Source: Desulfosudis oleivorans (GTDB lineage: Bacteria; Desulfobacterota; Desulfobacteria; Desulfobacterales; SURF-7). From it: a stretch of 64,000 bases of DNA. The stretch lies in contig DYJC01000003.1 of the NCBI GenBank assembly GCA_020723305.1, positions 270,418 to 334,417 on the forward strand. Reading direction: 5' to 3'. Positions 2,790 to 50,709 of the stretch are shown here, piece by piece. The position numbers were made by a program, and so were the translations under genes. The stretch's first letter is position 1, and each line of letters starts with the position of its first letter. The notes under the pieces were generated by a model that was given only the letters and a program-made list of their open reading frames with translations, had not been told where the DNA came from and did not search any database.

Positions 2790-2812
2790 ATATCGAAAGA
2801 TCCGGTTTTTCC

Positions 2813-3688: not shown

Positions 3689-3689
3689 T

Positions 3690-4439: not shown

Positions 4440-4448
4440 GGAAAAAAA

Positions 4449-34380: not shown

Positions 34381-34568
34381 GGACGGTCACTGAAAAAATA
34401 TTTTGAAAGATCCTCTCCACCCTGCGGGCCGATGGGCAGACGGTTTCCTCATGATGTGATTTCAGAATGGAGTCAAATCAACCAATAGCATGGATTGGAA
34501 TATTGCCGATCAGCAGGCAATCTTTCAGATTGACTTTTTTTTTAAATTTCTCTATTATTCAGCATATT

Positions 34569-37500
34569 ATGAAAAATTACTTTCATGCACTCCTTCGCGG
34601 ACGTTTTTCCCAAGCCCGAACCGGTTTTACATTGATTGAAATGGCAGTGGTGATGGTCCTTGCCGGTATTGTGATTTCCATCATCGCCACTGTTGTTCCG
34701 ACGCTGATCCGGTCTGCCAAAATCAAGCAGGCACAAGCCATTCTTGAGAAGGTGGATTATGCCATCCAGGGATATGTTACGGCAAACGGGCGTCTTCCAT
34801 TTGCCGACAATGGTGTATCCGGCGTGGAGGATTCCGCGACACCCACCTATTTCGGTAATTTGCCTTTTGTGACACTGGGGCTCTCTTCCGGCGATGATGT
34901 CTGGGGCAATCGCATGAAATACGGCGTGAATAGCGATCTGACCACAACCAACAAAACTACCATGGGCACAGCATTGGGAACTGCCTGTCCTGATCCGGTC
35001 GATCCTGCAAAACTGAATGTTGAACGCACGGTCGGCGGCAGCGCGAACATGGCCTATGTCATTGTCAGTGGGGGGCCTCAGGATCTGGATGCGGCTGGTG
35101 GTTTTTTTGACGGACTGAACGGTGGTTCCGACAATTCCAGTTATGATAATCCGGATCGTTTTGTAACAGCAACCTACGATGACCTCATGATCGCCCGTTC
35201 CTGTTTCACGGTTTCCGGCCAGCAGGGTTATGGGATCGGGACGGGAACAGGAGGGGGCGGCAGCAGCGGTGTCGAGAACACCAACGTACTGTGCAGTGAT
35301 GGAATTGATAATGACAGTGACGGCCGCATTGACTGCCATGATCAGGACTGCTGCGGCGCAAGTGTGACTGTTTGTCCGGATGGTTGTCCGCCGCCTACTT
35401 CCGTTTCGATTGTCACCACCCCGGCTGTTCTTACGGCGACGATTGGCCAGCTGGGTTTCAGCCATTCTTTTCAGGCCACCGGCGGTTCCGGTTATTATTA
35501 CTGGTACCTGGATGCAGCCACACCTGCCATATCCGGATTGGACATTGGCCTGGCTTCGGGCACCCTCAGCGGAAATGTTACCGTATGTGATGGAAATTAC
35601 AGTCTGGATGTCAGGGTGGAAGATCGATATGATTCCGCGAAAACCGATTCACATACCTTTCAATTAACGGTTGCCAGAGGGTCTCTGGCAATTTCACCGG
35701 CTCCCTCGGGATTGGGAACTCCGGCTGATTTTATTGTCAACACATCCAATTTCACACAGGATTTTTCCGTCAGCGGCGCTTATGTGGGGCCTTTTACATC
35801 TACTTCTCCTTCCGCCTGGTCGATCCAGTGGACGGAAGTGGATCCGGGAGGGTTTCAGATCGATCCTGTTTCAGATACCGTTGCCCGGTTGCGGAAAAGC
35901 GGCAACGCAACCTCGCGTGTCAATCCCTATCCTTTTAAACTTACGGCCATGGATGATTCCTGTCTGACCAATACAATTACCAGCGGTACGTATACGATTG
36001 AAATCACGTCCGCCGGCGCAGGTGCACCATATAGTGCCAATCTTGTGGCGGAATGGCGTCTGGATGAATGTTTATGGAACGGTACTTCCGGAGAAGTGAA
36101 GGATGAAGGCTCACTTGTATTAGATGGAACAGCCATGAACGGCGCAACCACTATCGGTTCCGGCAAGAATTGCCGTGCCGGGCTGTTTGACGGCACAAAT
36201 GATTATGTGACCGTGGCGAACAATGCTGAACTCCAGCGCACCACTGCTTTTTCAGTCGCCGCATGGGTCAAGGTTCATGCAAATGCTGCGGATTGGGTCA
36301 GGCTTGTGGGAAAAGGCAATTCTACCAATCGAAATTATGGCTTGTGGCTGGCCACCAACGGAACGGTTCTTTTTCAGATTTATTCCGACGGCGGCAATGG
36401 GAATTCCCAGACAGCCGTGACAATCAATGACGGAAACTGGCATCATGTGGTCGGCGTGTATGACCTTTCCACCATGAAAGTATACATTGACAATACGGAA
36501 AGGGCATCTGTCAATTATAGCCAGACGCCGCGGACATCCACTGATCCGTTTACCATGGGATATGCGGGTTTTCATACCTATTTAAGAGGCCTGCTGGATG
36601 AGGTGATGCTTTTTCATAAAGCCCTGACCTTGGCGGAAATTACGGAAATCTACCAGATCACCCGTACTGCATGCAGCGGAAATTGCTATGATGGTCCGAT
36701 TGCGGAATACCGCATGGAAAATTTTCCCTGGAACGGCAGTGCAAATGAAGTAGAGGATTCAGGAACCGGCCTTAGCCATGGTCGCGCGCTTGCCCGGGGG
36801 ACCGGCGTCAGGCCTTCCCAAACAACGCCTTCCGGCGGCAAGATCTGCCGATCGGGTATTTTTACTCGAACGGACGCAAACAATGGCGGCTATCTTGACC
36901 TGGGTGATCCTGCCGACGGTGATCTGGATCCGAACACGGCACCATTTACCATTTCCGCCTGGATCAAATGGAATGGATTAAACGGTGAGAACATCATCTA
37001 TAACAAGGAAAATTTATACGAAGCCCGCGTGAATGGCGGATATGTACAGTATGCCTGGCAGCCTCACTGGGTATGGGACGGCGGGAATACGTTTCCGATA
37101 ACCGCCAACACCTGGACCTATGCAACCCTGGTGTATGATGGTAATCAGCAGAGTCTTTATAAAAACGGCAGCCTTGTCTATTCCCGTTCACAGACCGGCG
37201 CCATCGGAGTCAACTCCGCGAAACTGCTCATCGGTGCACGGGGAAACAGCAATCCTATTAATTTTTTCGGCGGGCAGATTGACGAAATAAAGATTTACAA
37301 ACGCGCCCTGGCGGAAAATGAAATCGGAATCGATTATGCAGTAACCCGTGACTGTGCCGCAGATTCGGTCATCATAACCAGCACAACTCTTCCCGCTGCT
37401 TTGATCGGCCAGACCGGCTGGACCAGCGGCAGCGAGCCGACAGCCACCGGTGGTGCCACACCCTATGTTTGGCAGATCATCTCTCAGGAAGGGGGCTTGA

Positions 37501-37958
37501 ATCTCGGCATGCCTGATGTTGGTACCGGCGCACTGTCCGGCAACATTACCGTGTGTGCCGGAGTCTACCTTGTTACATTGCGGGTTACGGACAACAACGG
37601 GCGAATGGATGAAACAGCCCTGCCGCTTACCGTTTCCAACGGCACACTTGCGGTTTCAGGCCTGACTTCACCCCTCGACTGTACAGTCAGTACCTGTGAA
37701 TGGCCATTTTCCATTACCGGACCCATTCGGGGGCAGATGGACAATTGGGTCATTACCTGGCAAGGTGCAAATCCAGGTGGTTTTGTAGTCGTCACCACCG
37801 GTTCCAATACCGCAACATTACGTAAAACCGGAGCTTCGACCCCGGCCAACGGCTACCGTTTTTCTCTTACCGCATCGGACACTTCCTGCGCCAGTAATAT
37901 TCTGACAAGTCCATCCTATACCCTTAACATATCAGCGGCGGCTGCTCCGTCACCATAA
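34569..37958 (+). CDS. Giant prepilin-leader protein: type IV pilin-like N-terminus, Cys/Asp-rich motif, Ig-like module, 2 x LamG (concanavalin-like), Ig-like module
   Basis: Class III signal ...SQARTG/FTLIEMAVVMVLAGIVISI. Motif CSDGIDNDSDGRIDCHDQDCCG. Two LamG-type domains, both with the typical LDEV/IDEI...ALT/ALAxxEI endings. Duplicated flanking modules. No SD was seen before the ATG at 34569, so the start is uncertain (34467-34569). Confidence 0.8.
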   Translation: MKNYFHALLRGRFSQARTGFTLIEMAVVMVLAGIVISIIATVVPTLIRSAKIKQAQAILEKVDYAIQGYVTANGRLPFADNGVSGVEDSATPTYFGNLPFVTLGLSSGDDVWGNRMKYGVNSDLTTTNKTTMGTALGTACPDPVDPAKLNVERTVGGSANMAYVIVSGGPQDLDAAGGFFDGLNGGSDNSSYDNPDRFVTATYDDLMIARSCFTVSGQQGYGIGTGTGGGGSSGVENTNVLCSDGIDNDSDGRIDCHDQDCCGASVTVCPDGCPPPTSVSIVTTPAVLTATIGQLGFSHSFQATGGSGYYYWYLDAATPAISGLDIGLASGTLSGNVTVCDGNYSLDVRVEDRYDSAKTDSHTFQLTVARGSLAISPAPSGLGTPADFIVNTSNFTQDFSVSGAYVGPFTSTSPSAWSIQWTEVDPGGFQIDPVSDTVARLRKSGNATSRVNPYPFKLTAMDDSCLTNTITSGTYTIEITSAGAGAPYSANLVAEWRLDECLWNGTSGEVKDEGSLVLDGTAMNGATTIGSGKNCRAGLFDGTNDYVTVANNAELQRTTAFSVAAWVKVHANAADWVRLVGKGNSTNRNYGLWLATNGTVLFQIYSDGGNGNSQTAVTINDGNWHHVVGVYDLSTMKVYIDNTERASVNYSQTPRTSTDPFTMGYAGFHTYLRGLLDEVMLFHKALTLAEITEIYQITRTACSGNCYDGPIAEYRMENFPWNGSANEVEDSGTGLSHGRALARGTGVRPSQTTPSGGKICRSGIFTRTDANNGGYLDLGDPADGDLDPNTAPFTISAWIKWNGLNGENIIYNKENLYEARVNGGYVQYAWQPHWVWDGGNTFPITANTWTYATLVYDGNQQSLYKNGSLVYSRSQTGAIGVNSAKLLIGARGNSNPINFFGGQIDEIKIYKRALAENEIGIDYAVTRDCAADSVIITSTTLPAALIGQTGWTSGSEPTATGGATPYVWQIISQEGGLNLGMPDVGTGALSGNITVCAGVYLVTLRVTDNNGRMDETALPLTVSNGTLAVSGLTSPLDCTVSTCEWPFSITGPIRGQMDNWVITWQGANPGGFVVVTTGSNTATLRKTGASTPANGYRFSLTASDTSCASNILTSPSYTLNISAAAAPSP

Positions 37959-38104
37959 GAGCATCTGAAAGCTGAATTTTTTTCCTATTTCCTTTTCCTG
38001 CCTGAAAGACGATAATTTTTCAATCCATTGTTATTATGATGATTATTTAAAAAATGACCTTGTGGCATATGTTTTGCTCCATGAAGTTGATGAAAAAGTT
38101 TCAT

Positions 38105-38132
38105 TTAACTTTTCTGCGATATGCGCCGATTG
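38105..38132 (+). promoter_or_regulatory. Sigma28 (FliA)-like promoter upstream of the glycosylation operon
   Basis: TTAA-N16-GCCGATTG, compared with the enterobacterial consensus TAAA-N15-GCCGATAA. It lies about 40 nt upstream of the ATG at 38173. Confidence 0.4.
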
Positions 38133-38172: not shown

Positions 38173-38877
38173 ATGACGCTTCAAAACAATTTAACCTTTA
38201 CGCTTCAGGTCAACAATCAGGCAATAGCCATCCCCGCCGACCGGATCGTTGAAATGTTCCATCAGCTGTATTATGCCATCAAGGATCAGACTTGGGAGAA
38301 TACCTATTACCTGGGAAGACATATTATCAAATGTCCTCTGGATCTATGGGTCTGTCAGGAAATCTTTCATGAGGTTAAACCGGATCTGATCATCGAGACC
38401 GGGACGTTTCACGGCGGCGCTGCTTTATACTATGCCAATGTATGCGATACCTTGCAGCACGGCCGGATTCTCACCATCGATATTGACCGGTATTCCGGAG
38501 TCACCGAGCATCCCCGGATCACCTATATCAACGGATCTTCCACCTCGGAATCGGTTGTCCGGGAGGTGGAAGCGGTTGTGAAAAACAAAAAAACAATCCT
38601 TGTCATCCTGGATTCGGACCATGGGTATGATCATGTGCTTCAGGAGCTTCAAATTTACAGCCGATTTGTCACACCGGGAAGTTATCTGATTGTCGAAGAC
38701 ACCAATGTCAACGGTCATCCCGTAAGGCCGGAATGGGGGCCCGGACCCATGGAGGCATTGGAGGAGTTTTTGCGGAATGACAACTGTTTTAAAATCGATA
38801 TTGGACGTGAAAAATTCATGTTGACCATGAATCCGAAAGGCTACTTGAAAAAAATCCTGTCCGATGGATCGGCCTGA
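38173..38877 (+). CDS. CmcI/cephalosporin-hydroxylase-family SAM-dependent (sugar O-)methyltransferase
   Basis: CPLDLWVCQEIFHEVKPDLIIETGTFHGGAALYYA and ILDSDHGYDHVLQEL are typical CmcI-family blocks. Confidence 0.75.
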   Translation: MTLQNNLTFTLQVNNQAIAIPADRIVEMFHQLYYAIKDQTWENTYYLGRHIIKCPLDLWVCQEIFHEVKPDLIIETGTFHGGAALYYANVCDTLQHGRILTIDIDRYSGVTEHPRITYINGSSTSESVVREVEAVVKNKKTILVILDSDHGYDHVLQELQIYSRFVTPGSYLIVEDTNVNGHPVRPEWGPGPMEALEEFLRNDNCFKIDIGREKFMLTMNPKGYLKKILSDGSA

Positions 38878-39835
38878 AGGCTGGAGGTATATCGTGGAGC
38901 CCTATGAGGATATCTATTTTGAAGTATCCGGAAGGTGCAACGCCCGGTGCCGGTGGTGTGCCACCGGCCGGAAAAACAGGGCCGGCCGGAAAACCGGGGC
39001 GTTTATCGATCCGGATCTGTTTGCAAGGGGCATCCGGTATCTGAGAGAATACGGCATGATCGGTCCCAAAACGGTCGTCAAGCTGTTCAGCTGGGGTGAA
39101 CCCCTGCTTCATCCGAAATTTACGGATCTGGTGGATATCCTCAATCAGGAGGATGTTCCTTTCGGCATCAGCACCAATGCCTCCAAGCCGGTCTTTTTTC
39201 AGGCCCCTGACGCTCTCCGGAATCTGAGACAGGTTATTCTCTCCCTGCCGGGATTCAGTCAGAAATCCTATGACCGGATTCAGATGCTGGACTTTGAAAA
39301 AATGAAGACCAATATCGCCAAAATGCTCGTGAATTTCCGGGAGTGCGGTTATACGGGCAGCACCATCGGCAGCTATCATGTCTATCAATCCAATATGGAT
39401 GAGCTGGAAGCGGCGGCAGCCTTTGCCCAAGAGCATGATATCGGCCTCCTGCCCTCTTTTGCTTATATTGCGGACTGGATGGAATACCGCCGGTATCTGC
39501 GTCTTGAAATGACAGCGGAAAGGCTGAAGGAGGCCACCCAATCCCTGTTTCTGTTTCATGTAGAGGACAGGCTTCGGGAATTGCGCGCCTTCGGCAAGTG
39601 CATATGTCCCCAGTTCGACCATCTTGTCCTGGATGAACATTGCAATGTGCTCACCTGCTGTCTGGTGGACCGTGACTATCCGGATTACAGCATCGGCAAC
39701 CTGTTCGATCTGTCCCCGGAGAAAATCCAAACCCTGAAAAGAGCCCAGTCGATATGCCGGGAATGTCACGAGCTGGGGATCTGGTATTTAATCCAGGGAC
39801 CGCTGCCGATCAAGCGGCTTCTGACACTGAACTGA
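38864..39835 (+). CDS. Radical SAM protein with a Cys-rich (SPASM/twitch-like) C-terminus
   Basis: CxxxCxxC motif in GRCNARCRWCATG. C-terminal cysteines occur in CICPQFDHLVLDEHCNVLTCC...CRECHELG. It overlaps the upstream gene by 14 nt. Confidence 0.75.
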   Translation: MDRPEGWRYIVEPYEDIYFEVSGRCNARCRWCATGRKNRAGRKTGAFIDPDLFARGIRYLREYGMIGPKTVVKLFSWGEPLLHPKFTDLVDILNQEDVPFGISTNASKPVFFQAPDALRNLRQVILSLPGFSQKSYDRIQMLDFEKMKTNIAKMLVNFRECGYTGSTIGSYHVYQSNMDELEAAAAFAQEHDIGLLPSFAYIADWMEYRRYLRLEMTAERLKEATQSLFLFHVEDRLRELRAFGKCICPQFDHLVLDEHCNVLTCCLVDRDYPDYSIGNLFDLSPEKIQTLKRAQSICRECHELGIWYLIQGPLPIKRLLTLN

Positions 39836-39895
39836 TATCCGATGCATGCGGCTGCCGCCGGCTGTCCTATGCTGAATAAAAAAGGAGGCAATTGA

Positions 39896-42817
39896 ATGGG
39901 TACAAAAACAGAGAATTTTTTCAATGCCAATATGGCTGTTTTGAAGGAGACTCACCCGCATGTCTGGACCCTTTTTCAGGAAAACCGTTTTGAGCATATG
40001 GGGGAAATTCGCCGATCTCCATCCGGCAAACTCAATCTGGTTGTAACAGACAAGGAAGGCCGACAAACCTTTCTTCATGATCAGAATGATCCGGAAGCGG
40101 AAGTGCCGCAGTTTCTGGCAATGGTACCGGAAGAATCCACCGGCTTTATCGCCATGGTCGGGATGGGGCTGGCATATGCCCCCATGACCATTTTAAAAAA
40201 GAGGCCGTATATCCGTCATCTTGCGGTTTTTGACCGGCACCCGGGTATTCTCTTTCAGGCCATGCACCATCTGGATCTGACTCCTATGCTGTCCGACCCG
40301 CGTCTGCTTCTGGGAATCGGACCGGAGCCCGACATCCACGGGATTCTCATGCCGGCAACCCGGGCACTGCTGGTCGAGGCCATTCATACCCTCAAGCATG
40401 TACCCTCTTTTCGTCTGGATCCGGCCGGCTATGATGAACTCTATGACAAGGTATTTTCGTTTGTCAACGATTGCAATGTGGGCGGTGGGACTCTGTTTGC
40501 ATTTGGCGGCGACTTTCTGTCAAACCGTCTGGCCCATCTCACCGCCATGCCCCATAACCGGCTGATCGATCATGTAAAGGGTGCCTTCACCGGCAAGCCT
40601 GCCATTCTTGTGGCCGGCGGCCCTTCTCTGGACAAAAACATCCATGTGCTTGCACAGGCGAAGGACAAGGCGGTGATCATCGCCGCGGACACGGTGCTGA
40701 CCAAACTGATCAAACACGGGGTGCGGCCGGACTTTGTCACCTCCATTGATATGGAGGAGTTTACGTTCGAGAAGATCGCCGGTGCCATTCCGATGCTGAA
40801 CCATACGGACAAAATCGGGCTGATCTGTTCCTCCTGGGTGACCCCCAGGATGCCCAAGACCTTTCCCGCGTCACAGGTGTACTGGACCTTTACCGGCCGT
40901 CCTCTGGAAAACCGCATCAACATGCTCCTGGGTGGTTCCGTTTCCATGCCGGGGGCTAAAACCGTGGCCCATTTAAGTCTCCAGGCAGCCGTGGTCATGG
41001 GCTGCTCGCCGATTATTTTTATTGGACAGGATCTGGCCTTTTCGGACGACAAGGATCATGCCGATGGAACGGTTTTAACCAACCAGACGGCCATTACCTC
41101 CTTTCTTCAATCCAGCGACGTTATCTGGGTGGACGGCGTTCTGGGAAAGAAAGTGCCGACCAACCGTGGTTTTTTCAGTATGAAAGCCTACTTTGAACAG
41201 TTTATCGCCGGAACGCCGGGACATTACATCAATGCTACCGAAGGAGGCGCCCATATCGACGGAACGGAAGTTTTTACGCTGCAACAAGCCCTTGATCAAT
41301 TTTGCATGGAGGATCAAAACATTGCCGCCATCACTGCCCGCAGCGCCGTTGTTGATCGGAATCCGGGCAGGGAGCTGACTTCCAGTCTGCGCAACATACT
41401 TTCCAAGGTCAACCATCTCCGGAAGCTGATCAAAAAAGCCGATGCCCGATCGATTACAATTACGCGGGAGATTGGAAAACTTCAGCAGCGCGGCGGCATG
41501 TATACTTCCTTGAGGATGCTGCCCAAAAATCTTCAGCAGATGATTATTGAACTTAACAAGCTTCATGACGAAGTGGATGCAGCCAATCAGATATGGGAGT
41601 ACCTGGATGAAATCACCCTGGAAGGTGTCCGTCGGAGCGAGCGTCATCTGCATATCATTAAAATGCTGGAAGGAAAACCGGACAGATATATCGAGTGGCT
41701 GCTGAAAAGCATGGAACGGCTCGACGAGATCAACGGGGTTAGAAAAAATGTTCTGGACTTTTTCCATCAGCACCTTTCAAAGGCAATGCATCATTTTTTA
41801 CAGGAAGCCAAAATACGCGGGGAAATGGAAAAACAGGGCGACAGCATCACCTCCTGCTTGAAACTGGCAAAGCTGTATTTGGAATCAGACGATATTGTGC
41901 TGGCCCAATCCGTGTTGAAGCCTTTTGATGGTGTTTCCGGCGGTCCGGCTGAGATTTCTCTGTTCCTCGGGATGATCGCTGCCTGTCAGACCGAATTTGA
42001 CAAGGCGGAATTCCATTTCCGGGAAGCATGTCAAAAAGACTCCTCCTGCCATGAACAAATTAAAACCTTCCGGAAAAAGATGGGAGACACCTATATCCGG
42101 TATGCGGAGCGCCTCCGGTCGGAAGGCTATGATATCGGCACCATTCTGCTGAGAGGACTGCAATATTGTGAATCCAGCGACATCATCCGGACTTCGTTGA
42201 AAACCCTTTTCGAAGAGGAGATGCAGCGTATGGAAGCGAAAGCCGGGGATGGAAATCCGCTCTCTGCCGAACGCGAGATCCGCTTCTGGTATGATGCCCT
42301 GAAACAGAACAAACCTTTTGCCGCCTTGCTGACCGAAGATCTCAAAAAACGGTTGTGCTGCCTGAACGGTTTTATGCATGTCCGGCAAAACCATCCGGAA
42401 GAAGCGGCGGAGAGTTATGAGAGAGCATTGGATCTTTCAGCAGATGATCCGGAGCTCCATCTGCTTCTGGCGGATGTCCATTTTGCCGCACACGATTTTA
42501 CCAAGGGCATTGTCAGTCTCGACAGAGCCGTGGCATTGGACCGGAATTACGCCCGGTACTGGGAGAACATGGGTGATAACCTGTCAGCGGCCGGACAGCC
42601 GCTGGATGCTATCGCGGCTTATGAAAGATGCATCCTGGCATTGCCGGAACATCTCCTGATACTGAAAAAAATCGGGGATTGCCACATGGCTGCGGATCAG
42701 CTCCCGGCAGCTCTGGAAGCGTATCAACAATTCAAGGTCAAATCCGGAATTGCGGTCAACGGATGTTCTAAGATCGGTCCGCAGAAAGAACTGGAATATG
42801 GGCAACCCTGTAGCTGA
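39896..42817 (+). CDS. maf: Motility accessory factor (Maf, DUF115/MptE-like flagellin nonulosonic-acid glycosyltransferase) fused to a C-terminal TPR region
   Basis: DUF115 core KPAILVAGGPSLDKNIHVL...AVIIAADTVLTKLIKHGVRPDFVTSIDMEE...IIFIGQDLAFSD. The C-terminal ~350 aa contains TPR-like repeats. AGGAGG RBS upstream. Confidence 0.8.
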   Translation: MGTKTENFFNANMAVLKETHPHVWTLFQENRFEHMGEIRRSPSGKLNLVVTDKEGRQTFLHDQNDPEAEVPQFLAMVPEESTGFIAMVGMGLAYAPMTILKKRPYIRHLAVFDRHPGILFQAMHHLDLTPMLSDPRLLLGIGPEPDIHGILMPATRALLVEAIHTLKHVPSFRLDPAGYDELYDKVFSFVNDCNVGGGTLFAFGGDFLSNRLAHLTAMPHNRLIDHVKGAFTGKPAILVAGGPSLDKNIHVLAQAKDKAVIIAADTVLTKLIKHGVRPDFVTSIDMEEFTFEKIAGAIPMLNHTDKIGLICSSWVTPRMPKTFPASQVYWTFTGRPLENRINMLLGGSVSMPGAKTVAHLSLQAAVVMGCSPIIFIGQDLAFSDDKDHADGTVLTNQTAITSFLQSSDVIWVDGVLGKKVPTNRGFFSMKAYFEQFIAGTPGHYINATEGGAHIDGTEVFTLQQALDQFCMEDQNIAAITARSAVVDRNPGRELTSSLRNILSKVNHLRKLIKKADARSITITREIGKLQQRGGMYTSLRMLPKNLQQMIIELNKLHDEVDAANQIWEYLDEITLEGVRRSERHLHIIKMLEGKPDRYIEWLLKSMERLDEINGVRKNVLDFFHQHLSKAMHHFLQEAKIRGEMEKQGDSITSCLKLAKLYLESDDIVLAQSVLKPFDGVSGGPAEISLFLGMIAACQTEFDKAEFHFREACQKDSSCHEQIKTFRKKMGDTYIRYAERLRSEGYDIGTILLRGLQYCESSDIIRTSLKTLFEEEMQRMEAKAGDGNPLSAEREIRFWYDALKQNKPFAALLTEDLKKRLCCLNGFMHVRQNHPEEAAESYERALDLSADDPELHLLLADVHFAAHDFTKGIVSLDRAVALDRNYARYWENMGDNLSAAGQPLDAIAAYERCILALPEHLLILKKIGDCHMAADQLPAALEAYQQFKVKSGIAVNGCSKIGPQKELEYGQPCS

Positions 42818-42821
42818 TGGA

Positions 42822-44555
42822 ATGGAAACCGACGCCATGCTGAAAACGGCGGTGAAATGCCATCAGGATGGGAATCTTTCCGAAGCAGACCGGAGTTATT
42901 CGGCCATTTTGGTCGAGGAGCCGGATCATGCCGATGCATTACACCTGAAAGGACTCATCGCCTACCAGTCCGGGTGTTTTGAAGATGCGGCCCGGCTGAT
43001 CCAAAGGGCCATTTCCGTCAATCCCGGTTCACCTGAATTCCATAACAGCCTGGGCGCAGTTCAGGAAGCATTGGGTGATCCGGTTTTATCCATCGGCAGT
43101 TATGTAAAGGCGATTGAAAACCATCCGGATTACATTGACGCCTATGTCAATCTGGCGCGTCTGCGTCCGGATGTGGCGGAAGTCCGTTTTAATCTGGCGA
43201 GTATCCTCCACCGGCAGGGAAATATCGGGTCTGCCGTTGAGAATTACAAGGCAGCGGTCCGGCTTCAGCCCGAAAACGTCATTGCGCTCAACAATCTGGG
43301 CCTGACCCTTCAGGAAATGGGTAAAACAAGTGAAGCTGTCGATTGCTATATCCGTGCGGTGAATCTGATGCCGGATTTTTCCGAGGCCCGTTATAATCTA
43401 GGCCGCGTGTACCAGCTTCAGGGGGATTTGGAAAAGGCCGTCGAAGAATACCGCCGGGCAATCCGGACGACCCGCGGGCCATCTTCCCGGATTTTTTATA
43501 ACTGGGCCTTGGCCTTGCAGAAACTCGGCCAATATGATGAGGCTATCCAGCGGTATGCGGATGCTGTCCATGATGATCCGGGATATGCGGAAGCCCATGT
43601 GAACCGGTCGCTCCTGTTGCTGCTGACCGGCCGTTACCGGGAAGCCTGGCCCGAATATGAATGGCGGCGGAGGCGTCCGGACTGGCTCTCGGCTAATCCA
43701 ATCTATCCGGATCTGCCGTCCTGGGACGGAAGCCCTATGTCTGGAAAACGCATTCTGGTTCAGGCGGAGCAAGGTTTCGGCGATACGATTCAGTTTGTCC
43801 GATATCTGCCCCTGGTCAAAAATCGCTGCGGGCGGATTATTCTCGAAGCACCTCCGGCCCTGCACCCTTTGTTGAAATCCCTGTCCGCCATTGATGAGAT
43901 GGCGGCACCGAATCCGGAAAACGCTAAAAAGGCCGATGCCGGTGTGCATCTGTTGAGCCTTCCCGGGATCTTTCAGACCACCGTAAATACGATTCCCATG
44001 GTGGTTCCCTATCTGCATGCTCCGGCCGGAAAAATAGAAAACTGGCAAGACCGGATTTCCGGAAACGGGTTCAACATCGGTGTGGTTTGGTCCGGCAATC
44101 CAGCCCATCCGGAAAATACTTTTCGCTCCTGTGATCCAGGTCATTTTGTTTCCCTGGTATCCCTGCCGTCCGTGAACCTGTACAGCCTGCAAAAAGGCCC
44201 GGCCGCGGACAGGCTTCGGGAAACGCCCGGCTGCGCCGGTATTGTGGATCTCGGACCGGAACTCCATGATTTTTCCGATACGGCCGCCGTCATAATGAAC
44301 CTGGACCTGGTCATTTCCGTGGATACGGCGCTGGTTCATCTGGCCGGTGCTTTGGGAAAGCCTGTCTGGACCCTGCGCTATCATCAGCCTTACTGGGTAT
44401 GGGGAACACACGAAAACAAATCACCCTGGTATCCCACCATGCGGATTTTCCGGCAATCGCCTGCGGAGAGCTGGAGTCAATTTTTCCAGCATATTATAGA
44501 GACACTGCACCAATATGTTTATTCGCCATATGGCATGCGGGAAAAGGAAATTTGA
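42822..44555 (+). CDS. TPR-repeat protein with a C-terminal GT-B (GT9/heptosyltransferase-like) glycosyltransferase domain
   Basis: N-terminal TPR units (ALHLKGLIAYQSG..., ALNNLGLTLQEMG..., ARYNLGRVYQLQG...). The C-terminus carries EQGFGDTIQFVRYLPLV and ISVDTALVHLAGALGKPVW. The start is ambiguous (42798, 42822 or 42837). Confidence 0.75.
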   Translation: METDAMLKTAVKCHQDGNLSEADRSYSAILVEEPDHADALHLKGLIAYQSGCFEDAARLIQRAISVNPGSPEFHNSLGAVQEALGDPVLSIGSYVKAIENHPDYIDAYVNLARLRPDVAEVRFNLASILHRQGNIGSAVENYKAAVRLQPENVIALNNLGLTLQEMGKTSEAVDCYIRAVNLMPDFSEARYNLGRVYQLQGDLEKAVEEYRRAIRTTRGPSSRIFYNWALALQKLGQYDEAIQRYADAVHDDPGYAEAHVNRSLLLLLTGRYREAWPEYEWRRRRPDWLSANPIYPDLPSWDGSPMSGKRILVQAEQGFGDTIQFVRYLPLVKNRCGRIILEAPPALHPLLKSLSAIDEMAAPNPENAKKADAGVHLLSLPGIFQTTVNTIPMVVPYLHAPAGKIENWQDRISGNGFNIGVVWSGNPAHPENTFRSCDPGHFVSLVSLPSVNLYSLQKGPAADRLRETPGCAGIVDLGPELHDFSDTAAVIMNLDLVISVDTALVHLAGALGKPVWTLRYHQPYWVWGTHENKSPWYPTMRIFRQSPAESWSQFFQHIIETLHQYVYSPYGMREKEI

Positions 44556-44557
44556 AT

Positions 44558-45310
44558 ATGCAGGCAAATGAAAAGGAATATGAATTTACAGTTCCCGGTG
44601 CGGTAGCGCTGGCCCCGGACGGCATGGAGCATGCGCTGGATGTGGGTTGCGCCGGAGGCGCCTTGGGATCTTATCTGAAATCCCAAAAAAAATATAAAAC
44701 AGTTGTCGGCATCGAGTACAGCAAATCCTCAGCAGCCAAAGCACGCCTTCTCCTGGACGAGGTCTACGTCGGAGATGCCTGCATCATCGATCTGCCGACA
44801 AAATACCGAAATTATTTTGATTTGATTGTCTACACCAATGTCCTTGAGCATCTGTATGACCCCTGGTCCGTCATCACCAGGCATAAAGCCTATCTGAGGG
44901 AAGGCGGCTATATGCTTGCGAGCATACCGAATATGCGAAATCTTTTCATCCTGCTGCATTTATTGATCGGGCGGTTTGACTATACCGAACTCGGTTTGCT
45001 GGATAAAACCCATATCCGATTTTTCACGGCAGACACGGCATTGGAGATGTTTATAAACGCAGGTTTTATTCTTGATCGCATGGCAAGAACCATCTGCGAT
45101 GCCAAATGGCATGCAGACTTAAACGACCGGCCCATTCAGCCGGCGATTCTGGAATTTTATGATAAAATTTATCAGAAGCATATGCGTGGAGAGGATTGTT
45201 CGTCGGATTTGCAGCAATGTTTCGGGCTGTTTTCGTTCACTATAGAGGCTACCGTAGAATTTCTTACCAGCCAATATCATCTGCTGCTCAGGAAACCCGT
45301 AACAGGTTAA
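44558..45310 (+). CDS. Class I SAM-dependent methyltransferase
   Basis: Motif I ALDVGCAGGALGSYL and the post-I block DLIVYTNVLEHLYDPW. The ATG at 44558 begins 3 nt after the upstream TGA. Confidence 0.8.
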   Translation: MQANEKEYEFTVPGAVALAPDGMEHALDVGCAGGALGSYLKSQKKYKTVVGIEYSKSSAAKARLLLDEVYVGDACIIDLPTKYRNYFDLIVYTNVLEHLYDPWSVITRHKAYLREGGYMLASIPNMRNLFILLHLLIGRFDYTELGLLDKTHIRFFTADTALEMFINAGFILDRMARTICDAKWHADLNDRPIQPAILEFYDKIYQKHMRGEDCSSDLQQCFGLFSFTIEATVEFLTSQYHLLLRKPVTG

Positions 45311-45328
45311 AAAATAAGGAATTTTTAA

Positions 45329-46570
45329 TTGGATCAGCGTAAAACCAGATATCATGTTGTTGTTGTCATTGAAAAAGGTATTGCCGCCCCCAACATTATG
45401 CTGGATTTTGCATCAGCGTTTGAAGAGCTGGGTCATTCCGTTTTCCTGATTGATTTCCGTCTTCTGGAAACCATGGCATCCGATGAGGAAAAAATCACCT
45501 ATTTTGAAAATATCCGAAAAGAATTAAAGCAGTTCGAGCCGGATTTTGCCGTCGGATATGGCAACAGCGTGTTTATTTCACTGCCCCCTAATGATCCGGA
45601 ACGCCATTTTTTCGAGGAATTGAACCTGGATTATGTCTCTCTGTTTTTCGACAACCCGCTCCTGACCGGTTTTATCAGTTCCATGCTGACCTTGCATTCC
45701 CCCCGGTATACGGTTTTTATCTGGGATCGGAACCACCTTGCCGAATTCCGCAAGCAGCATAAAAAGGAAGCCTTTTATCTGCCACTGGCCACCAATCCAA
45801 AGATATTTCAGCCCCTTGCCTCGGAACCGGAATTTGAGGCAGATGTCGGTTTTATCGGGTCGGTCAGCACGACAGCGGATTATGATCTGGAGCGGACTCA
45901 GAATGGCTGGCACGAATGGCTCATCAGTTTTGCCCGGAATATTGTAGATGAGGTCCGCCGGCACCCGGGTGTTACCGTGACGGAAATCATTCATACCTTT
46001 CGGGATGGTTTCCCGGATGAAACCCGAAAGGCCCTGGACGATTTTTCCAGGCGGGATGATTACACCTCCTTTATCCTTTCCATATATGATGAAATCGGAG
46101 CCCGTGACCGCATGGATGCCATCCGCCTGTTGCCGGACGACCTGCGGGTGCACGTCTACGGAGGTCCCGGCTGGAACCGTCTGAGCAAACCCGGCTTGCA
46201 TCTGAAAGGCCCGGTCGATTATCATCGGACGGCGCCCCTGGTATATAATTCGGCCCGGATCAATCTGAATGTCACCGGCAGCCAGTTGTCCGCAGCCGTG
46301 AATCAGCGGGTGTTTGATGTGGCTGCATGCGGGGCTTTCCTGCTTACGGATTATCGAACCGCCCTGGATGAACTGTTTGATGTGGGCCGGGAAGTGGCCT
46401 GCTATCGCAACCTGAATGAATTAAACCAGTTGACGGATTATTACCGGAGCCATCCGGATCTGCGGCTGGAAATCGCAGCCCGGGGCAGGGAACGGGTGCT
46501 TGCCGAGCACACCTATTGCCACCGGGCCCAGCGCATCATCGACCTTTTTCAATACCGCGCATCCTATTGA
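45329..46570 (+). CDS. CgeB-family glycosyltransferase (DUF3880 plus GT1-like C-terminus)
   Basis: C-terminal block INLNVTGSQLSAAVNQRVFDVAACGAFLLTDY...RGRERVLAEHTYCHRAQRI is typical of CgeB-like enzymes. The TTG start follows AAGGAA. Confidence 0.65.
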   Translation: MDQRKTRYHVVVVIEKGIAAPNIMLDFASAFEELGHSVFLIDFRLLETMASDEEKITYFENIRKELKQFEPDFAVGYGNSVFISLPPNDPERHFFEELNLDYVSLFFDNPLLTGFISSMLTLHSPRYTVFIWDRNHLAEFRKQHKKEAFYLPLATNPKIFQPLASEPEFEADVGFIGSVSTTADYDLERTQNGWHEWLISFARNIVDEVRRHPGVTVTEIIHTFRDGFPDETRKALDDFSRRDDYTSFILSIYDEIGARDRMDAIRLLPDDLRVHVYGGPGWNRLSKPGLHLKGPVDYHRTAPLVYNSARINLNVTGSQLSAAVNQRVFDVAACGAFLLTDYRTALDELFDVGREVACYRNLNELNQLTDYYRSHPDLRLEIAARGRERVLAEHTYCHRAQRIIDLFQYRASY

Positions 46571-46780: not shown

Positions 46781-46796
46781 GGGGAAAGGAATCCCC
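46781..46796 (+). promoter_or_regulatory. Leader hairpin presenting GGA in its loop, 14 nt upstream of the SD; candidate CsrA-type site
   Basis: GGGGA-aaggaa-TCCCC gives a 5-bp stem with an AAGGAA loop. The SD GGAGG at 46810-46814 supplies a second GGA. Confidence 0.3.
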
Positions 46797-46821: not shown

Positions 46822-49800
46822 ATGGCATTACGAATCAATACCAACGTATCGGCGTTGAACGCCCACAAAAACATGCTTAAGAATGATGGCTTGCTGTCAT
46901 CTTCACTGGAGAAGCTGTCTTCCGGTCTGCGCATCAACAAGGCAGCCGATGATGCTTCGGGCATGGCCATCGCTGATTCCCTCAAATCCCAGGCAATGAG
47001 TCTGGGCCAGGCCATCCGGAACGCCAATGACGGAATAAACATTGTGCAGACCGCTGATGCCGCCCTGGAAGAATCCATTAACATTGTCAACACGATTAAA
47101 ACCAAGGCCATCCAGGCAGCCCAGGACGGTCAGACGACCGATTCCCGGAAAGCCATTCAGGCGGATATCACCAAACTGATGGAAGAATTGGATATCATTG
47201 CCAAGACGACGGCTTTTAACAACCAGAAACTGCTGTTCGGTAATTTTACCAACAAGAAGTTTCAGGTGGGCGCCTATTCCGGAGAGACGGTCAATATTTC
47301 CATCGCCTCTTCCCAGTCCACCAAAATCGGTCATGTCACCACCGGTAAGCTGGCGCTAACCGGCGACCAGGCCGGTTCCGTGGAGCTGGCCATTTACAGC
47401 AACCTGCAGAACAGAAGTTTCCTGGTCGAGTCCACCAACGTTCAGTACAACAACTCCCGGGAAAACAGCCTGGGTGCGTTGGCGGACGCCATCAACAAAC
47501 TGAGTGATGTTCTGGGTATTTCCGCATCGGCCAAGGTGGAAAGCAAGACCGTTCTCAATATTGCCGGCGGCACCACGGATACGGATTTTGCTATCAACGG
47601 CGTCAACATCGGACAGTTGAATGTTGTGGCCAATGACGCGGATGGCGCCCTGGTCAAGGCCATCAACCAGAAAACCTCCCAGCACGGTGTCGTTGCCAGC
47701 GTGGACAACGCCGGCTTTATGACCATGACATCCACCGACCAGAGAGCCCTGGAGGTCAGTTACAGCAGTGCGGTCGGCAGCGGTCTTGGTACCGATGCCA
47801 TTTTCAGGGGAACCAACATGAGTACCTTTGGTTATATAACCCTCAATCAGGAAGGTTCGGCTGAAATTCAGGTCCTTGATGTAGGCGACGGCGGGGTTGT
47901 GGCCATTTCCAGTGATCTGGAAACCTCCGGCACTACCACCACCACCATCGACTCCACCCTGGGCACCGGGTCCACACTAGCCCAGAACTCTATCCTGGGT
48001 GCCGGTTGGACAGCCGATCAGAACATCACCGGAGGGACTTTTTCTTCTGCCATCACCACCACCCAGACATCCACCCTGGTCAGCGGTTCAGCCCTTGGTC
48101 AGAATTCGGTTCTGGGTGCGGGTACGGTTATCGGCGCCAGTTCGACATTCGGCGGCAATGGCCGGGTTGAGGAAGTGGCCAACACCACCGGTTCCAGTAC
48201 CATCGTCACCAGTTCCATCCTCCAGGCCGGTACGGTGCTGAATATTTCCTCCAGTGAGCAAATTCAGTCGGATATGACCATTGCCGCTTCCAGTACGGCG
48301 ACTTCCGCGAGTACCCTTGTCAGCGGCTCGATTTTGGCCATTGGCACGGTCCTGGCCTCCGGGCAAGGGCTCACCAGCGGACTTTCCGGCGTGGCCCTGA
48401 CTATCGGCGCCACGGGCGTGGCTGCCGGCGCATCCGTACTTGGCTCCGGTGCTACATTGGCGTTGGGAACGGTACTGGCTTCCGGGCAATCTCTCACCAG
48501 CGGTCTTTCCGGCGTGGCGTTGACCATCGGCGCCACCGGCATAGCGGAAGGGCTATCTGTCTTAGGTTCCGGCGCAACACTGGCATTGGGTACGGTTCTG
48601 GCTTCCGGGCAAGGGCTCACCAGCGGTCTCTCCGGCGTGGCCTTGACCATCGCCGCAACAGGAGTGGCTGCGGGCGTTTCCGTTGTCGGTTCCGGCGCCA
48701 CCCTGGCTATCGGCACGGTTCTGGCTGCCGGCGCTACCCTGACCAGCGGTCTGGCTCAGACCGTCCAGATTGACACCACAACCACCAGCCTGTCCACTTC
48801 CGGTTCGACCGGCAGCGTACTGGCCGTGGGCACCAGGTTGATCGCAGGTCACACGACCCAGTATAATACAACCATTAGTGATACCGCCGCCACCACCAGC
48901 AGCAGCACTGTGGCCGCTAACAGTACTCTGGCCAACGGTACGGTGATCGGATCGGGCACGATATTCACGCAGGATATCAATACCACCAGCGGTGTTCTCA
49001 CCGCCGGTACGGCTGTTGTAGGAACAGCCACCCTATCCGGTGCCCAGACCCTGACGGCAGACAACACACTGCAAGGCGGCAGCCGCTTCATCAACGGTAC
49101 GGTTCTCGCCAGCGGTTCCTCCGTAGATACGGCCATCACCCTGACCTCGGCCATCACTACTACAGCGGCCTATGTTTTGGAAGCTGGGACCGTGATCGGT
49201 AGAGGTACTGATTTCACCGCCGGCTCCTCCATTGGCGGGGCAGCCACCCTCTTGACAGCGGAAACCCTTGCTGTTGCATCGGCCTACACCATGGCCTCCG
49301 GCCATAGCTTCGGCAGCGGGTCCATCATTGGTGTGGCCACCACAGAAGGCGGCTCCGGATATCTGGGCGTGGATGCTACCCTCATTGCCGCAGCCACCAT
49401 CAGCACCGCCGGTGCTGTAACCCTGGTGTCAGGCCATAGCTTCGGCAGCGGGTCCATCATTGGTACGGCCACCACAGCAGGCGGCTCCGGATATCTGGGT
49501 GTGGATGCTACCCTCATTGCCGCAGCCACCATCAGTACCGCCGGTGCTGTAACCTTGGTGACCGGCCACAGCTTCGGCAGCGGTTCCATCGTTGGTACAG
49601 CTACCACCGCCGGCGGTTCCGGGTACTTTGGTGTGGATGTTACCCTCATTGCCGCAGCCACGATTGGCGAAGACACGTTGGTGATCGGTCATGTCTTTGG
49701 CGCCGGCACTTTCCTGGAAAGCGGCACAACGGTCGGTACAGCCATCACCCTGCAGAACACCGCCACCCTTGGCGGCGATATGACCCTGAGTGCCGGGTCA

Positions 49801-50709
49801 ACGATTGCCGACGGCAGCGTGCTGCAGACCGGTTCCATCCTGTCCAATGACGCTACACTGTCATCCGGCATGACCCTGGTCAACGCCATGACCCTGAACA
49901 GTGACATGGATCTGGCATCCGGAAGTGTAATCCAGAACAATATTGGTACCTTGATTGCAGCAGGTTCGCTTGTCGGCGGTGATGCCACCCTGGCGTCCGA
50001 TCTGGAACTGGTAGGAGATCTGGACCTTGCAACCGGTTCCACCATCGGCAGCGGTTCGGTTCTGGTGAATGGATCGACTCTTGGCGGTGCTATCACCCTG
50101 GCCAACGCTGAAACCGTAAGCGGAGACGGCGGCATGAACCTGGCTGGGGGATCTTCCCTGGCCGCAGGCAGCGTGATCGCTAAAGGCACCTACCTGACCA
50201 ATAACATTGTTGCCTCAGATGGTAAGACATACACCACCGGTACGGTGCTGACCGACAATATCACCACATCGGGTGTTAACAGCATTACCGTGGAGATGAG
50301 TCTGCAGGAAGGTTCGGTTCTGGCGGCAGGCAGTGTTCTGGGTGCCAACCAGAGCTCCGGATCGGTCACGACCGATATAACCGACACTGAGTTGAATCGG
50401 CTCTCAAATGTGAGTGTACTCACTCAGGAATCGGCACAGAAAACCATTGCCATTGCAGATGCAGCGTTGAAAGATCTGGACAAGGTCAGGGCGGATCTTG
50501 GTTCTACTCAGAATCAATTGAATTCGACCATTGCCAATATCACAACCACAACCGTCAATGTAAAGGCTGCGGAATCCAGTATCCGTGAGGTGGATTTTGC
50601 AGATGAAGCATCAAACTTTACAAAGATGCAGGTTTTGATGCAGGCCAGCACATTCGCACTGGCCCAGGCCAATGCAACCTCTCAGCAGATACTGAGTCTT
50701 CTTCAATAA
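46822..50709 (+). CDS. Giant flagellin (1295 aa)
   Basis: Canonical N-terminus MALRINTNVSALNAHKNM...LSSGLRINKAADDASGMAIAD and C-terminus LGSTQNQLNSTIANITTTTVNVKAAESSIREVDFADEASNFTKMQVLMQASTFALAQANATSQQILSLLQ. An enormous Gly/Ser/Thr/Ala/Val/Leu-rich insert lies between them. fliD, fliS and flaG follow. Confidence 0.95.
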   Translation: MALRINTNVSALNAHKNMLKNDGLLSSSLEKLSSGLRINKAADDASGMAIADSLKSQAMSLGQAIRNANDGINIVQTADAALEESINIVNTIKTKAIQAAQDGQTTDSRKAIQADITKLMEELDIIAKTTAFNNQKLLFGNFTNKKFQVGAYSGETVNISIASSQSTKIGHVTTGKLALTGDQAGSVELAIYSNLQNRSFLVESTNVQYNNSRENSLGALADAINKLSDVLGISASAKVESKTVLNIAGGTTDTDFAINGVNIGQLNVVANDADGALVKAINQKTSQHGVVASVDNAGFMTMTSTDQRALEVSYSSAVGSGLGTDAIFRGTNMSTFGYITLNQEGSAEIQVLDVGDGGVVAISSDLETSGTTTTTIDSTLGTGSTLAQNSILGAGWTADQNITGGTFSSAITTTQTSTLVSGSALGQNSVLGAGTVIGASSTFGGNGRVEEVANTTGSSTIVTSSILQAGTVLNISSSEQIQSDMTIAASSTATSASTLVSGSILAIGTVLASGQGLTSGLSGVALTIGATGVAAGASVLGSGATLALGTVLASGQSLTSGLSGVALTIGATGIAEGLSVLGSGATLALGTVLASGQGLTSGLSGVALTIAATGVAAGVSVVGSGATLAIGTVLAAGATLTSGLAQTVQIDTTTTSLSTSGSTGSVLAVGTRLIAGHTTQYNTTISDTAATTSSSTVAANSTLANGTVIGSGTIFTQDINTTSGVLTAGTAVVGTATLSGAQTLTADNTLQGGSRFINGTVLASGSSVDTAITLTSAITTTAAYVLEAGTVIGRGTDFTAGSSIGGAATLLTAETLAVASAYTMASGHSFGSGSIIGVATTEGGSGYLGVDATLIAAATISTAGAVTLVSGHSFGSGSIIGTATTAGGSGYLGVDATLIAAATISTAGAVTLVTGHSFGSGSIVGTATTAGGSGYFGVDVTLIAAATIGEDTLVIGHVFGAGTFLESGTTVGTAITLQNTATLGGDMTLSAGSTIADGSVLQTGSILSNDATLSSGMTLVNAMTLNSDMDLASGSVIQNNIGTLIAAGSLVGGDATLASDLELVGDLDLATGSTIGSGSVLVNGSTLGGAITLANAETVSGDGGMNLAGGSSLAAGSVIAKGTYLTNNIVASDGKTYTTGTVLTDNITTSGVNSITVEMSLQEGSVLAAGSVLGANQSSGSVTTDITDTELNRLSNVSVLTQESAQKTIAIADAALKDLDKVRADLGSTQNQLNSTIANITTTTVNVKAAESSIREVDFADEASNFTKMQVLMQASTFALAQANATSQQILSLLQ
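48322..48756 (+). repeat. In-frame 123-bp (41-codon) tandem repeat, about 3.5 units, inside the flagellin gene
   Basis: The unit anchor GGN ACG GTN CTG GCY KCC GGS recurs at 48343, 48466, 48589 and 48712, an exact 123-nt spacing. The protein unit is GTVLASGQGLTSGLSGVALTIGATGVAAGASVLGSGATLAL. Confidence 0.9.
49294..49695 (+). repeat. In-frame 132-bp (44-codon) tandem repeat, about 3 units, inside the flagellin gene
   Basis: GGCCAYAGCTTCGGCAGCGG occurs at 49300, 49432 and 49564. Units 1 and 2 differ at 8 of 132 nt by manual alignment. The protein unit is SGHSFGSGSIIGTATTAGGSGYLGVDATLIAAATISTAGAVTLV. Confidence 0.9.

Follow-up and report, generated by a model that had tools for sequence, protein, structure and literature searches.

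A probable flagellin glycosylation island in a Desulfobacterota bacterium that combines a Maf-tetratricopeptide protein with a GT9-type tetratricopeptide glycosyltransferase and tailoring enzymes

Why would one set of genes in front of a flagellin gene encode two different candidate flagellin glycosyltransferases together with a third glycosyltransferase, two methyltransferases and a radical S-adenosylmethionine (SAM) enzyme? This question is raised by six genes at positions 38173-46570 of a 64,000-nucleotide stretch of DNA assigned to Desulfosudis oleivorans (assembly GCA_020723305.1, contig DYJC01000003.1, positions 270,418 to 334,417), to which we refer in full length as the window. The products of the six genes most likely glycosylate the flagellar filament and modify its sugars in a bacterium that resembles sulfate reducers. 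We consider it probable that we are dealing with a flagellin glycosylation island from a member of the Desulfobacterota, made up of four functional parts: a Maf protein fused to tetratricopeptide repeats (Maf-TPR), a TPR-bearing glycosyltransferase of family GT9 (TPR-GT9), a pair of a class I methyltransferase and a CgeB-like glycosyltransferase, and a pair of a CmcI-family methyltransferase and the radical SAM enzyme. As such it represents no new kind of system but a variant, rarely seen yet recurrent, of gene islands that are well known. The variant is marked by the direct coupling of a GT9-fold TPR transferase to Maf, by the conserved methyltransferase/CgeB-like pair and by the rare CmcI/radical SAM pair.

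All six genes lie on the + strand, and the gene of a 1295-residue flagellin (46822-50709, + strand) follows directly downstream. In order they encode a CmcI-family methyltransferase (rhamnosyl O-methyltransferase/cephalosporin-hydroxylase-like; 38173-38877, 234 residues, PF04989), a radical SAM enzyme with a conserved, Twitch/SPASM-like C-terminal cysteine set (38864-39835, 323 residues, PF04055), a Maf protein (MAF_flag10/DUF115) of the Maf-1 type with C-terminal TPR (39896-42817, 973 residues, PF01973 and TPR families), a protein with about 300 N-terminal TPR residues and a GT9-type glycosyltransferase domain of the GT-B fold (42798-44555, 585 residues, TPR families and PF01075), a class I SAM methyltransferase (44558-45310, 250 residues, Methyltransf_23/11/12) and a CgeB/YkvP-like glycosyltransferase with DUF3880 and Glyco_trans_1_2 domains (45329-46570, 413 residues, TTG start, PF13524 and PF12996). 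Pfam confirmed the domain assignments of all six. The start of TPR-GT9, for which the open reading frame (ORF) spans 42750-44555, was corrected to the ATG at 42798 chosen by the gene caller or to the ATG at 42822, giving 585 or 577 residues; the gene thereby either overlaps the stop codon of Maf (42815-42817) or abuts it. For the class I methyltransferase (ORF 44399-45310) the most likely start is the ATG at 44558, giving 250 and not 303 residues. This ATG lies 2 nt past the TPR-GT9 stop codon and is preceded by an AAGGA Shine-Dalgarno sequence; the same motif is found 9 nt 5' of the TTG start of the CgeB-like gene. The end of the CmcI gene overlaps the start of the radical SAM gene by 14 nt. 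Intergenic spacings of -14 to +60 nt are consistent with a single operon, which the six genes appear to form. Apart from the two corrected start codons, the co-directional and close packing upstream of a giant flagellin gene was as originally described.

The core enzyme of the operon can be assigned by its sequence to the known Maf-1 type of flagellin glycosyltransferase. Its residues 213-384 match DUF115/MAF_flag10 (MptE-like, PF01973) with 130.9 bits at a cutoff of 34.6 (E 5.3e-38), and TPR families match the C-terminal part (residues ~620-950). Within the Maf part, residues 76-394 align to residues 114-430 of the solved Magnetospirillum Maf (5MU5_A, E 1.6e-9), and the NCBIfam FlagModPseD domain model matches with an E-value of 3.7e-30. 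Since PF01973 was confirmed in 39896-42817, a gene without DUF115 can be dismissed here, in line with the original prediction.

The same prediction regarded the fusion of Maf to TPR repeats as unusual, a view that has to be given up. A search with the Maf part yielded at least 120 clusters of 950-1000 residues that carry both Maf and TPR at 42-58% identity and come from Desulfobulbaceae, Desulfobacterales, Desulfobacula, Desulfurivibrio and Thiovibrio. For a comparison of gene neighbourhoods we used 80 related loci (denoted by L numbers), i.e. species-representative genome loci that encode Maf relatives, and 62 of them showed the TPR tail. By these comparisons Maf-TPR is the standard form of Maf in Desulfobacterota. 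The fusion is also known from Shewanella oneidensis Maf-1, in which flagellin is bound by the C-terminal TPR part, a part that glycosylation cannot do without (Unay, Kint & Viollier, bioRxiv 10.1101/2023.12.03.569772). The Maf-1 subtype is marked by such binding and by independence of a GlfM adaptor, a four-helix-bundle protein. Both proteins combine an N-terminal MAF_flag10/DUF115 domain with C-terminal TPR, a likeness of architecture and not of direct alignment, and both are encoded in the flagellin locus of an organism with a pseudaminic acid (Pse) pathway. They differ in length (822 vs 973 residues) and presumably in the acceptor, which would here be the 1295-residue giant flagellin; Desulfobacterota are not covered in the Shewanella work, where no 'Desulfo' term occurs. 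A Maf-TPR protein of the Desulfobacterota type (46% identity) was furthermore seen in a contig labelled 'Promethearchaeota archaeon' (L053, JAIWHJ010000016.1), which also encodes a bacterial flagellin with an N-terminus 81% identical to that of the window flagellin. This contig is probably mis-binned.

The presumed acceptor gene is located 4 kb downstream of the Maf gene. Between its conserved ends (Flagellin_N, E 5.6e-43; Flagellin_C, E 5.6e-26) the flagellin has a central region (residues 171-1205) that consists of 28% Ser and Thr and 15% Gly, contains no Cys and holds internal repeats, namely ~45-residue units around residues 500-640 and near-identical blocks around residues 830-960. This region gives a weak Pfam Hexapep match, and its DNA has a GC content of 61% vs ~47% elsewhere. 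All 36 complete flagellins that adjoin Maf relatives in the fetched loci are 801-2011 residues long, nearly all of them beside Maf-TPR fusions. Together with the TPR tail in 62 of the 80 loci, this makes the combination of giant flagellin and Maf-TPR the norm in Desulfobacterota. A search for literature on giant flagellins and glycosylation found none. We also considered whether TPR-GT9 tracks flagellin size and rejected this idea, as the flagellins measure 802-1492 residues with and 801-2011 residues without TPR-GT9, i.e. show no clear relation.

Further filament genes follow on the + strand: fliD (50908-52614; Pfam FliD_N/FliD_C), fliS (52656-53165; Pfam FliS), an ORF of no assigned family (53172-53552) and flaG (53601-53936; Pfam FlaG). 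The adjacency of flagellin, FliD, FliS and FlaG genes, the Pse pathway in the window and the recurrence of the gene families beside flagellin genes support the original prediction of a flagellin glycosylation island. As a side observation, a hairpin (GGGGA-aaggaa-TCCCC, 46781-46796) with GGA in its loop precedes the Shine-Dalgarno sequence of the flagellin gene (GGAGG) by ~25 nt and, by analogy, recalls CsrA binding sites on flagellin mRNAs; in L003 csrA and fliW genes adjoin a flagellin gene.

Genes for a donor sugar are found in the same window, ~31 kb upstream of the operon. They lie on the + strand at 956-7032 and encode, according to NCBIfam and Pfam, the amidotransferase WbuX, a HisH-like and a WbuZ/HisF2-like protein, a cytidine monophosphate (CMP)-sugar cytidylyltransferase, a PseG-PseH fusion and PseI. 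NCBIfam scores exceeded the cutoffs for PseI (491.6 vs 340 bits), PseG (239.9 vs 153.6) and WbuX (338.3 vs 203.2), while WbuZ remained just below (291.6 vs 299.7); HisH scored 230 bits. Judged from these families the donor pathway probably leads to pseudaminic acid with an acetamidino group. The same donor genes are located directly upstream of Maf in L002/L005; such an arrangement is that of the closest named relative, Desulfobulbaceae MAG127. A single nonulosonic acid synthase is visible in the window. At the head of the Pse cluster lies an additional ORF (88-987) whose similarity to B12-binding radical SAM methyltransferases is limited to their radical SAM half (profile positions ~188-419); the true start of this ORF may precede the window.

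What then is the second transferase? In TPR-GT9, TPR repeats span residues ~36-310, and PF01075 (Glyco_transf_9) scores 29.5 bits at a cutoff of 22, aligning to residues 498-542 only (ORF numbering from 42750). The sequence of the glycosyltransferase (GT) domain found no significant match in the PDB (WaaC, E ~0.9), and a profile search gave no useful result for this domain, as the TPR columns of homologues dominated. An AlphaFold model of the C-terminal 307 residues, i.e. the GT domain, was obtained with a predicted local distance difference test score (pLDDT) of 89.6 and a predicted template modelling score (pTM) of 0.90. With this model Foldseek returned WaaF (1PSW, E 5.3e-10, query TM score TMq 0.60) as well as the GT9 structure 3TOV, WaaC (2H1H) and TibC (4RAP), with E-values from 5e-10 to 1e-5, TM scores of 0.45-0.60 and 11-15% identity. 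The GT9-like GT-B domain that had been predicted on the TPR protein is thus borne out by a confident model, of which WaaF, WaaC and TibC are the best PDB matches. These GT9 enzymes and TibC (BAHT family) resemble the GT domain in structure, in keeping with the PF01075 score above cutoff, but they lack a TPR domain and share only the low identity given above. TibC is a protein O-heptosyltransferase, an example of a GT9-like fold that is able to glycosylate protein Ser/Thr in the cytoplasm. In the general annotation of the window no heptose biosynthesis genes were noted.

By its architecture TPR-GT9 resembles FlmG of Caulobacter crescentus and Brevundimonas (PMC7591256; bioRxiv 10.1101/2022.03.25.485807). 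FlmG comprises 596 residues with TPR at 1-313 and GT-B at 309-596, and its TPR part binds flagellin (PMC7591256). In both cases an N-terminal TPR part of ~300 residues precedes a C-terminal GT-B domain of ~290 residues, the total length is ~580-600 residues (577-585 here) and the gene lies beside flagellin-modification genes; this comparison concerns architecture and not sequence. In contrast to the locus studied here, where TPR-GT9 stands directly behind the Maf gene, organisms with FlmG are without Maf, and FlmG has been described as confined to Caulobacterales (bioRxiv 10.1101/2023.12.03.569772). A scan of metagenome contigs with two primer-derived FlmG patterns gave no matches, and the literature on FlmQ contained little of use.

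TPR-GT9 has at least 7998 homologues (best identity 50%), for most of which PF01075 is precomputed. The family is multi-copy in replicons of Azospirillum and the Burkholderia group, with up to 12 copies on Azospirillum chromids. On plasmid p2 of Azospirillum sp. TSA2s (L086, 7134-8891) the neighbours of a homologue are a type I secretion system and a Ca-binding protein of more than 2200 residues. The family may glycosylate other secreted proteins. With a family this large and often non-flagellar, it is the gene context that suggests flagellin as the acceptor of the window enzyme, and this context is favourable here. TPR-GT9 occurs within 10 kb of Maf in 11 of the 80 related loci, in 6 of these 11 immediately downstream on the same strand. 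TPR-GT9 is dispensable for flagellin glycosylation as such.

Finding Maf and a TPR-GT in one operon had been called notable, since the two are normally regarded as alternative solutions. The 11 loci speak against this judgement: to go by gene neighbourhoods, Maf plus TPR-GT9 is a recurring minority arrangement and not an anomaly. A parallel is offered by Clostridium islands (BMC Microbiol 2026, PMC13317340), where Maf and TPR-GT2 candidate flagellin glycosyltransferases were predicted for Clostridium sporogenes and TPR repeats served as a marker of flagellin glycosyltransferases. There, too, Maf and a TPR-bearing GT share one flagellin island, each is read as the flagellin transferase for a different sugar and methyltransferases are co-encoded. 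The islands differ in that the TPR-GTs belong to GT2 (GT-A) and not to GT9 (GT-B) and the hosts are Gram-positive; the assignments in Clostridium are predictions as well.

The next two genes form a conserved pair. Among solved structures, the putative methyltransferase 3CC8 comes closest to the class I methyltransferase (E 2.7e-40). The CgeB-like protein matches PF13524 with 126.3 bits at a cutoff of 25 (E 1.2e-36) and PF12996 (DUF3880) with 44 bits at a cutoff of 25.2 (E 2.7e-11), and has neither a solved structure nor a sequence match in the PDB. In L005, L009 and L088 its place in the gene order is taken by homologues of 47-61% identity. In the relatives the class I methyltransferase is always paired with the CgeB-like GT, and in L087 both domains are fused in one protein of 665 residues, which argues for an action of both on the same sugar. 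The combination of DUF3880 and Glyco_trans_1_2 is that of CgeB and YkvP from Bacillus subtilis. These are spore-surface proteins associated with the glycosylation of a proteinaceous layer, with the function of CgeB being poorly defined. The protein described here differs in its flagellar context and in the class I methyltransferase gene that accompanies its gene or is fused to it.

The first two genes constitute the rare part of the operon. The CmcI methyltransferase matches PF04989 with 214.8 bits at a cutoff of 23.2 (E 1.4e-63). On the NCBIfam model RhmsylMtase it reaches 164.6 bits vs a cutoff of 400 and is thus not an equivalog of the mycobacterial rhamnosyl O-methyltransferase. The radical SAM enzyme is the newest element of the locus. 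It comes from an uncharacterised family of small size whose members share additional conserved cysteines; an exhaustive HMMER search among 1.84e9 entries yielded 213 representatives at E <= 1e-30. It matches PF04055 with 48 bits at a cutoff of 29.5 (E 2.1e-12). In 34 homologues the cysteines of the CX3CX2C motif (C25/C29/C32) as well as C248, C265, C266, C298 and C301 show no or almost no variation, which bears out the predicted Cys-rich tail as real and conserved. The spacing C-X16-CC...C-X2-C presumably resembles that of the auxiliary-cluster ligands of BtrN.

A structural model of the radical SAM enzyme (pLDDT 93.4) has SPASM/Twitch enzymes as its Foldseek neighbours, with anSME on top and SuiB, CteB, EpeE, BlsE, DesII and BtrN among the further matches. 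Sugar-acting (BlsE, DesII, BtrN) and protein-acting (anSME, SuiB, CteB) enzymes score alike. The likeness comprises the radical SAM core and presumably a C-terminal auxiliary-cluster-like Cys region (E 1e-9 to 3e-7), but identity is 13-18% and TM only ~0.5. There is no PF13186 (SPASM) match, NCBIfam SPASM-type models score only far below their cutoffs, and the window family is set apart by its flagellin-island context and its fusions (see below). Pfam and NCBIfam scans of the 323 residues revealed no B12-binding domain (PF02310). C-methylation, which had been named as one possible reaction, is the less likely chemistry, because a cobalamin-binding domain is missing and the structural neighbours are of the SPASM/Twitch type. 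The window's two radical SAM genes (38864-39835 and 88-987) were considered as paralogues, yet they share no similarity; in L087 a full B12-radical SAM gene adjoins the homologue of the operon enzyme.

Radical SAM homologues of 48-58% identity are located in Maf-TPR/flagellin islands, and a 34%-identity homologue in a Firmicute flagellin island. Several members of the family are 700-1500-residue fusions with WbsX, GT2 or GT4/GT1 domains and class I methyltransferase domains (P0292, P0361, P0371, P0384, P0385, P0386, P0391 and P0338). In the sense of a Rosetta-stone argument these fusions to glycosyltransferases and methyltransferases point to glycan tailoring that is coupled to glycosyl transfer. 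That a radical SAM enzyme would be unusual in such a locus was not confirmed, as radical SAM genes are common in flagellin islands of Desulfobacterota. One of them, in a Desulfosudis oleivorans metagenome-assembled genome (L003/L009, 17186-18919, - strand), encodes a 577-residue protein with TPR, Radical_SAM and SPASM domains and is followed by sulfotransferase, GT1 and methyltransferase genes; this protein belongs to a radical SAM family other than that of the window enzyme (no tblastn match).

How far the modules recur together was seen from the related loci. The cassette of Maf, TPR-GT9, class I methyltransferase and CgeB-like GT is present in two species-representative genomes (L005 and L009), and its gene order is kept there and in L088 at 47-65% protein identity. 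All six families are found in L088, one other metagenomic contig, including an adjacent radical SAM-CmcI pair in which the CmcI homologue has 58% identity. Among the 80 species-representative loci neither a CmcI gene (0/80) nor a close radical SAM homologue (0/80) was detected, the only radical SAM match being one of 25% identity in L064.

The operon probably is transcribed from a sigma-54-type promoter and would then be part of a sigma-54 flagellar regulon. A promoter-like site of this type, TGGCATatgttTTGCT, lies on the + strand at 38063-38078, 95 nt upstream of the first gene, and is the sole TGGCAY-N5-TTGCW match in the window (0.2 expected; at least one in 17 of 100 shuffles). In the related loci (1.4 Mb) 10 of 20 strict matches were co-oriented and within 1 kb upstream of a Maf gene, a zone that makes up 2.9% of the search space (binomial p 5e-11). 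It is this enrichment in relatives that makes membership of the operon in such a regulon probable. Strict sites were also seen ~80-110 nt upstream of flagellin genes in L050 (17147) and L055 (19378); none was found in the flagellin upstream region of the window. A sigma-28 promoter upstream of the operon was rejected, as the match at 38106-38132 has 3 mismatches; matches of that quality numbered 73 vs 56.5 expected, which was reached in 2 of 100 shuffles and is marginal. Generic sigma-70 promoters were not above shuffles in a combined promoter and terminator scan.

We observed which domains and folds are present, how the genes are packed, a donor pathway and the repeated occurrence of the modules next to flagellin genes, and from these we infer catalytic activities, acceptor, order of steps and glycan structure as follows. 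In the cytoplasm, flagellin that is unfolded or free of chaperone would be the docking partner of the C-terminal TPR part of Maf-TPR. Before export, the MAF_flag10 domain would transfer a CMP-activated pseudaminic acid derivative, probably the acetamidino form made by PseG/H, PseI, WbuX, HisH and WbuZ, to Ser/Thr residues of the flagellin central region. TPR-GT9 could act as a second flagellin-docking transferase of different fold that adds a sugar at further Ser/Thr residues or onto the first sugar. The class I methyltransferase and the CgeB-like GT may add and methylate a further sugar, and the CmcI/radical SAM pair may carry out an O2-independent sugar modification, e.g. oxidation or epimerisation plus methylation. 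A multi-sugar glycan is plausible.

Alternatives to this scheme differ mainly in the roles of TPR-GT9 and the tailoring enzymes. In one of them, which we regard as unlikely, TPR-GT9 is an FlmG-type nonulosonic acid transferase, such that two Pse or legionaminic acid transferases of different folds (GT-A-like Maf and FlmG-like GT-B) serve different Ser/Thr sites. Shewanella Maf-1 and Maf-2 with their different target serines (bioRxiv 10.1101/2023.12.03.569772) would be the precedent. The architecture and size agree with FlmG (577-585 vs 596 residues), and the primer-derived FlmG junction 'WSGQDL' (residues ~309-313) resembles 'SWDGSPMSGK' at the start of the GT domain, which is a weak hint only. 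Yet the closest solved folds are adenosine diphosphate-heptose transferases (WaaF, WaaC, TibC) and not CMP-sugar enzymes, the window holds a single nonulosonic acid synthase, and FlmG, compared here by its architecture, has been described as confined to Caulobacterales. Quite improbable is an action of TPR-GT9, and possibly of the CgeB-like GT, on a different acceptor, i.e. another cytoplasmic or secreted protein or an envelope glycan, with a mere co-location with Maf. Such a role would suit the huge and often non-flagellar family and the lack of TPR-GT9 in most Maf-TPR loci, but the gene overlaps or abuts the Maf stop codon, sits between the Maf and flagellin genes, directly follows Maf in 6 of 11 loci and belongs to a gene order conserved at 47-65% identity.

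The glycan may also be simpler than proposed. The CmcI methyltransferase, radical SAM enzyme, class I methyltransferase and CgeB-like protein would then modify activated Pse or a single transferred sugar to a decorated monosaccharide, and the CgeB-like protein would not be a chain-extending GT. We find this doubtful, although flagellar derivatives of Pse and legionaminic acid that bear methyl, acetamidino or further groups are well known from Campylobacter and Clostridium (PMC13317340), the genes are interleaved with NeuB, PseF and HisH/F genes in L087 and L088, and an N-terminal extension of Firmicute homologues (precomputed PF22674) is common to the methyltransferase and GT2 of the same locus. 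Against it stand the complete Glyco_trans_1_2 domain of the CgeB-like protein and the presence of three GT-type enzymes in a single operon, which speaks for more than one sugar; in addition, fusions of the radical SAM family to bona fide GT2, GT4 and WbsX fit better to tailoring coupled to glycosyl transfer. Finally, the radical SAM enzyme could modify amino-acid side chains of flagellin directly, like SPASM enzymes of the anSME type, and not a sugar. The top Foldseek match to anSME, the further matches to SuiB, CteB and EpeE, the fusion of one homologue (P0257) to an N-terminal TPR domain as well as the different TPR-radical SAM-SPASM protein in the L003 flagellin locus agree with this possibility. 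We consider it very unlikely, given that the family is overwhelmingly fused to glycosyltransferases and methyltransferases, that the sugar-acting BlsE, DesII and BtrN match equally well and that the gene is translationally coupled to that of the CmcI-type sugar methyltransferase.

Some observations weigh against the proposed flagellin glycosylation island. Glycosylation of the flagellin is a prediction from the genes. At a distance of 31 kb, the Pse genes might be used for lipopolysaccharide or capsule synthesis as well. TPR-GT9 has many family members in non-flagellar contexts and is near Maf in only a minority of the related loci, and more distant radical SAM homologues (34-44% identity) occur in unrelated contexts. 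The window-wide significance of the sigma-54 site taken alone is weak, with matches in 17% of the shuffles.

Directly upstream of the operon, at 34467-37958, lies a gene for a 1163-residue protein that carries an N-terminal methylation motif of the prepilin type along with two Laminin_G_3 domains, features that suggest a giant pilin-like or pseudopilin adhesin. It is preceded by an RHH/PIN toxin-antitoxin pair.

If the flagellin should carry only a modified pseudaminic acid, the region would be an ordinary flagellin glycosylation island. A broader view joins the elements of the locus: in some Desulfobacterota one giant flagellin would be served in parallel by a Maf-1-type (GT-A-like) and an FlmG-like TPR/GT-B transferase, and the radical SAM enzyme would represent a GT/methyltransferase-coupled family for O2-independent tailoring of protein-linked glycans. 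For example, a sugar carbon could first be oxidised or epimerised, with CmcI-type methylation as the next step; this would be an anaerobic counterpart of the cephamycin hydroxylase/CmcI pair. We put this broader view forward as a speculation that we regard as unlikely. Maf-1-type and FlmG-like transferases have so far been treated as lineage-specific alternatives, and if the broader view were true, the FlmG class would extend far beyond Caulobacterales. The encoding of acceptor and donor specificity is being actively investigated, and the locus together with L005, L009 and L088 forms a natural case for its study: two TPR-guided transferases of different folds, two GT/methyltransferase tailoring modules and a radical SAM enzyme converge, according to our reading, on one Ser/Thr-rich flagellin in an anaerobe. 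Confirmed by experiment, this would widen the range of the TPR-GT-B (FlmG-like) solution, provide a function for part of a very large family that is annotated mostly as TPR proteins, and define a new glycan-acting radical SAM family.

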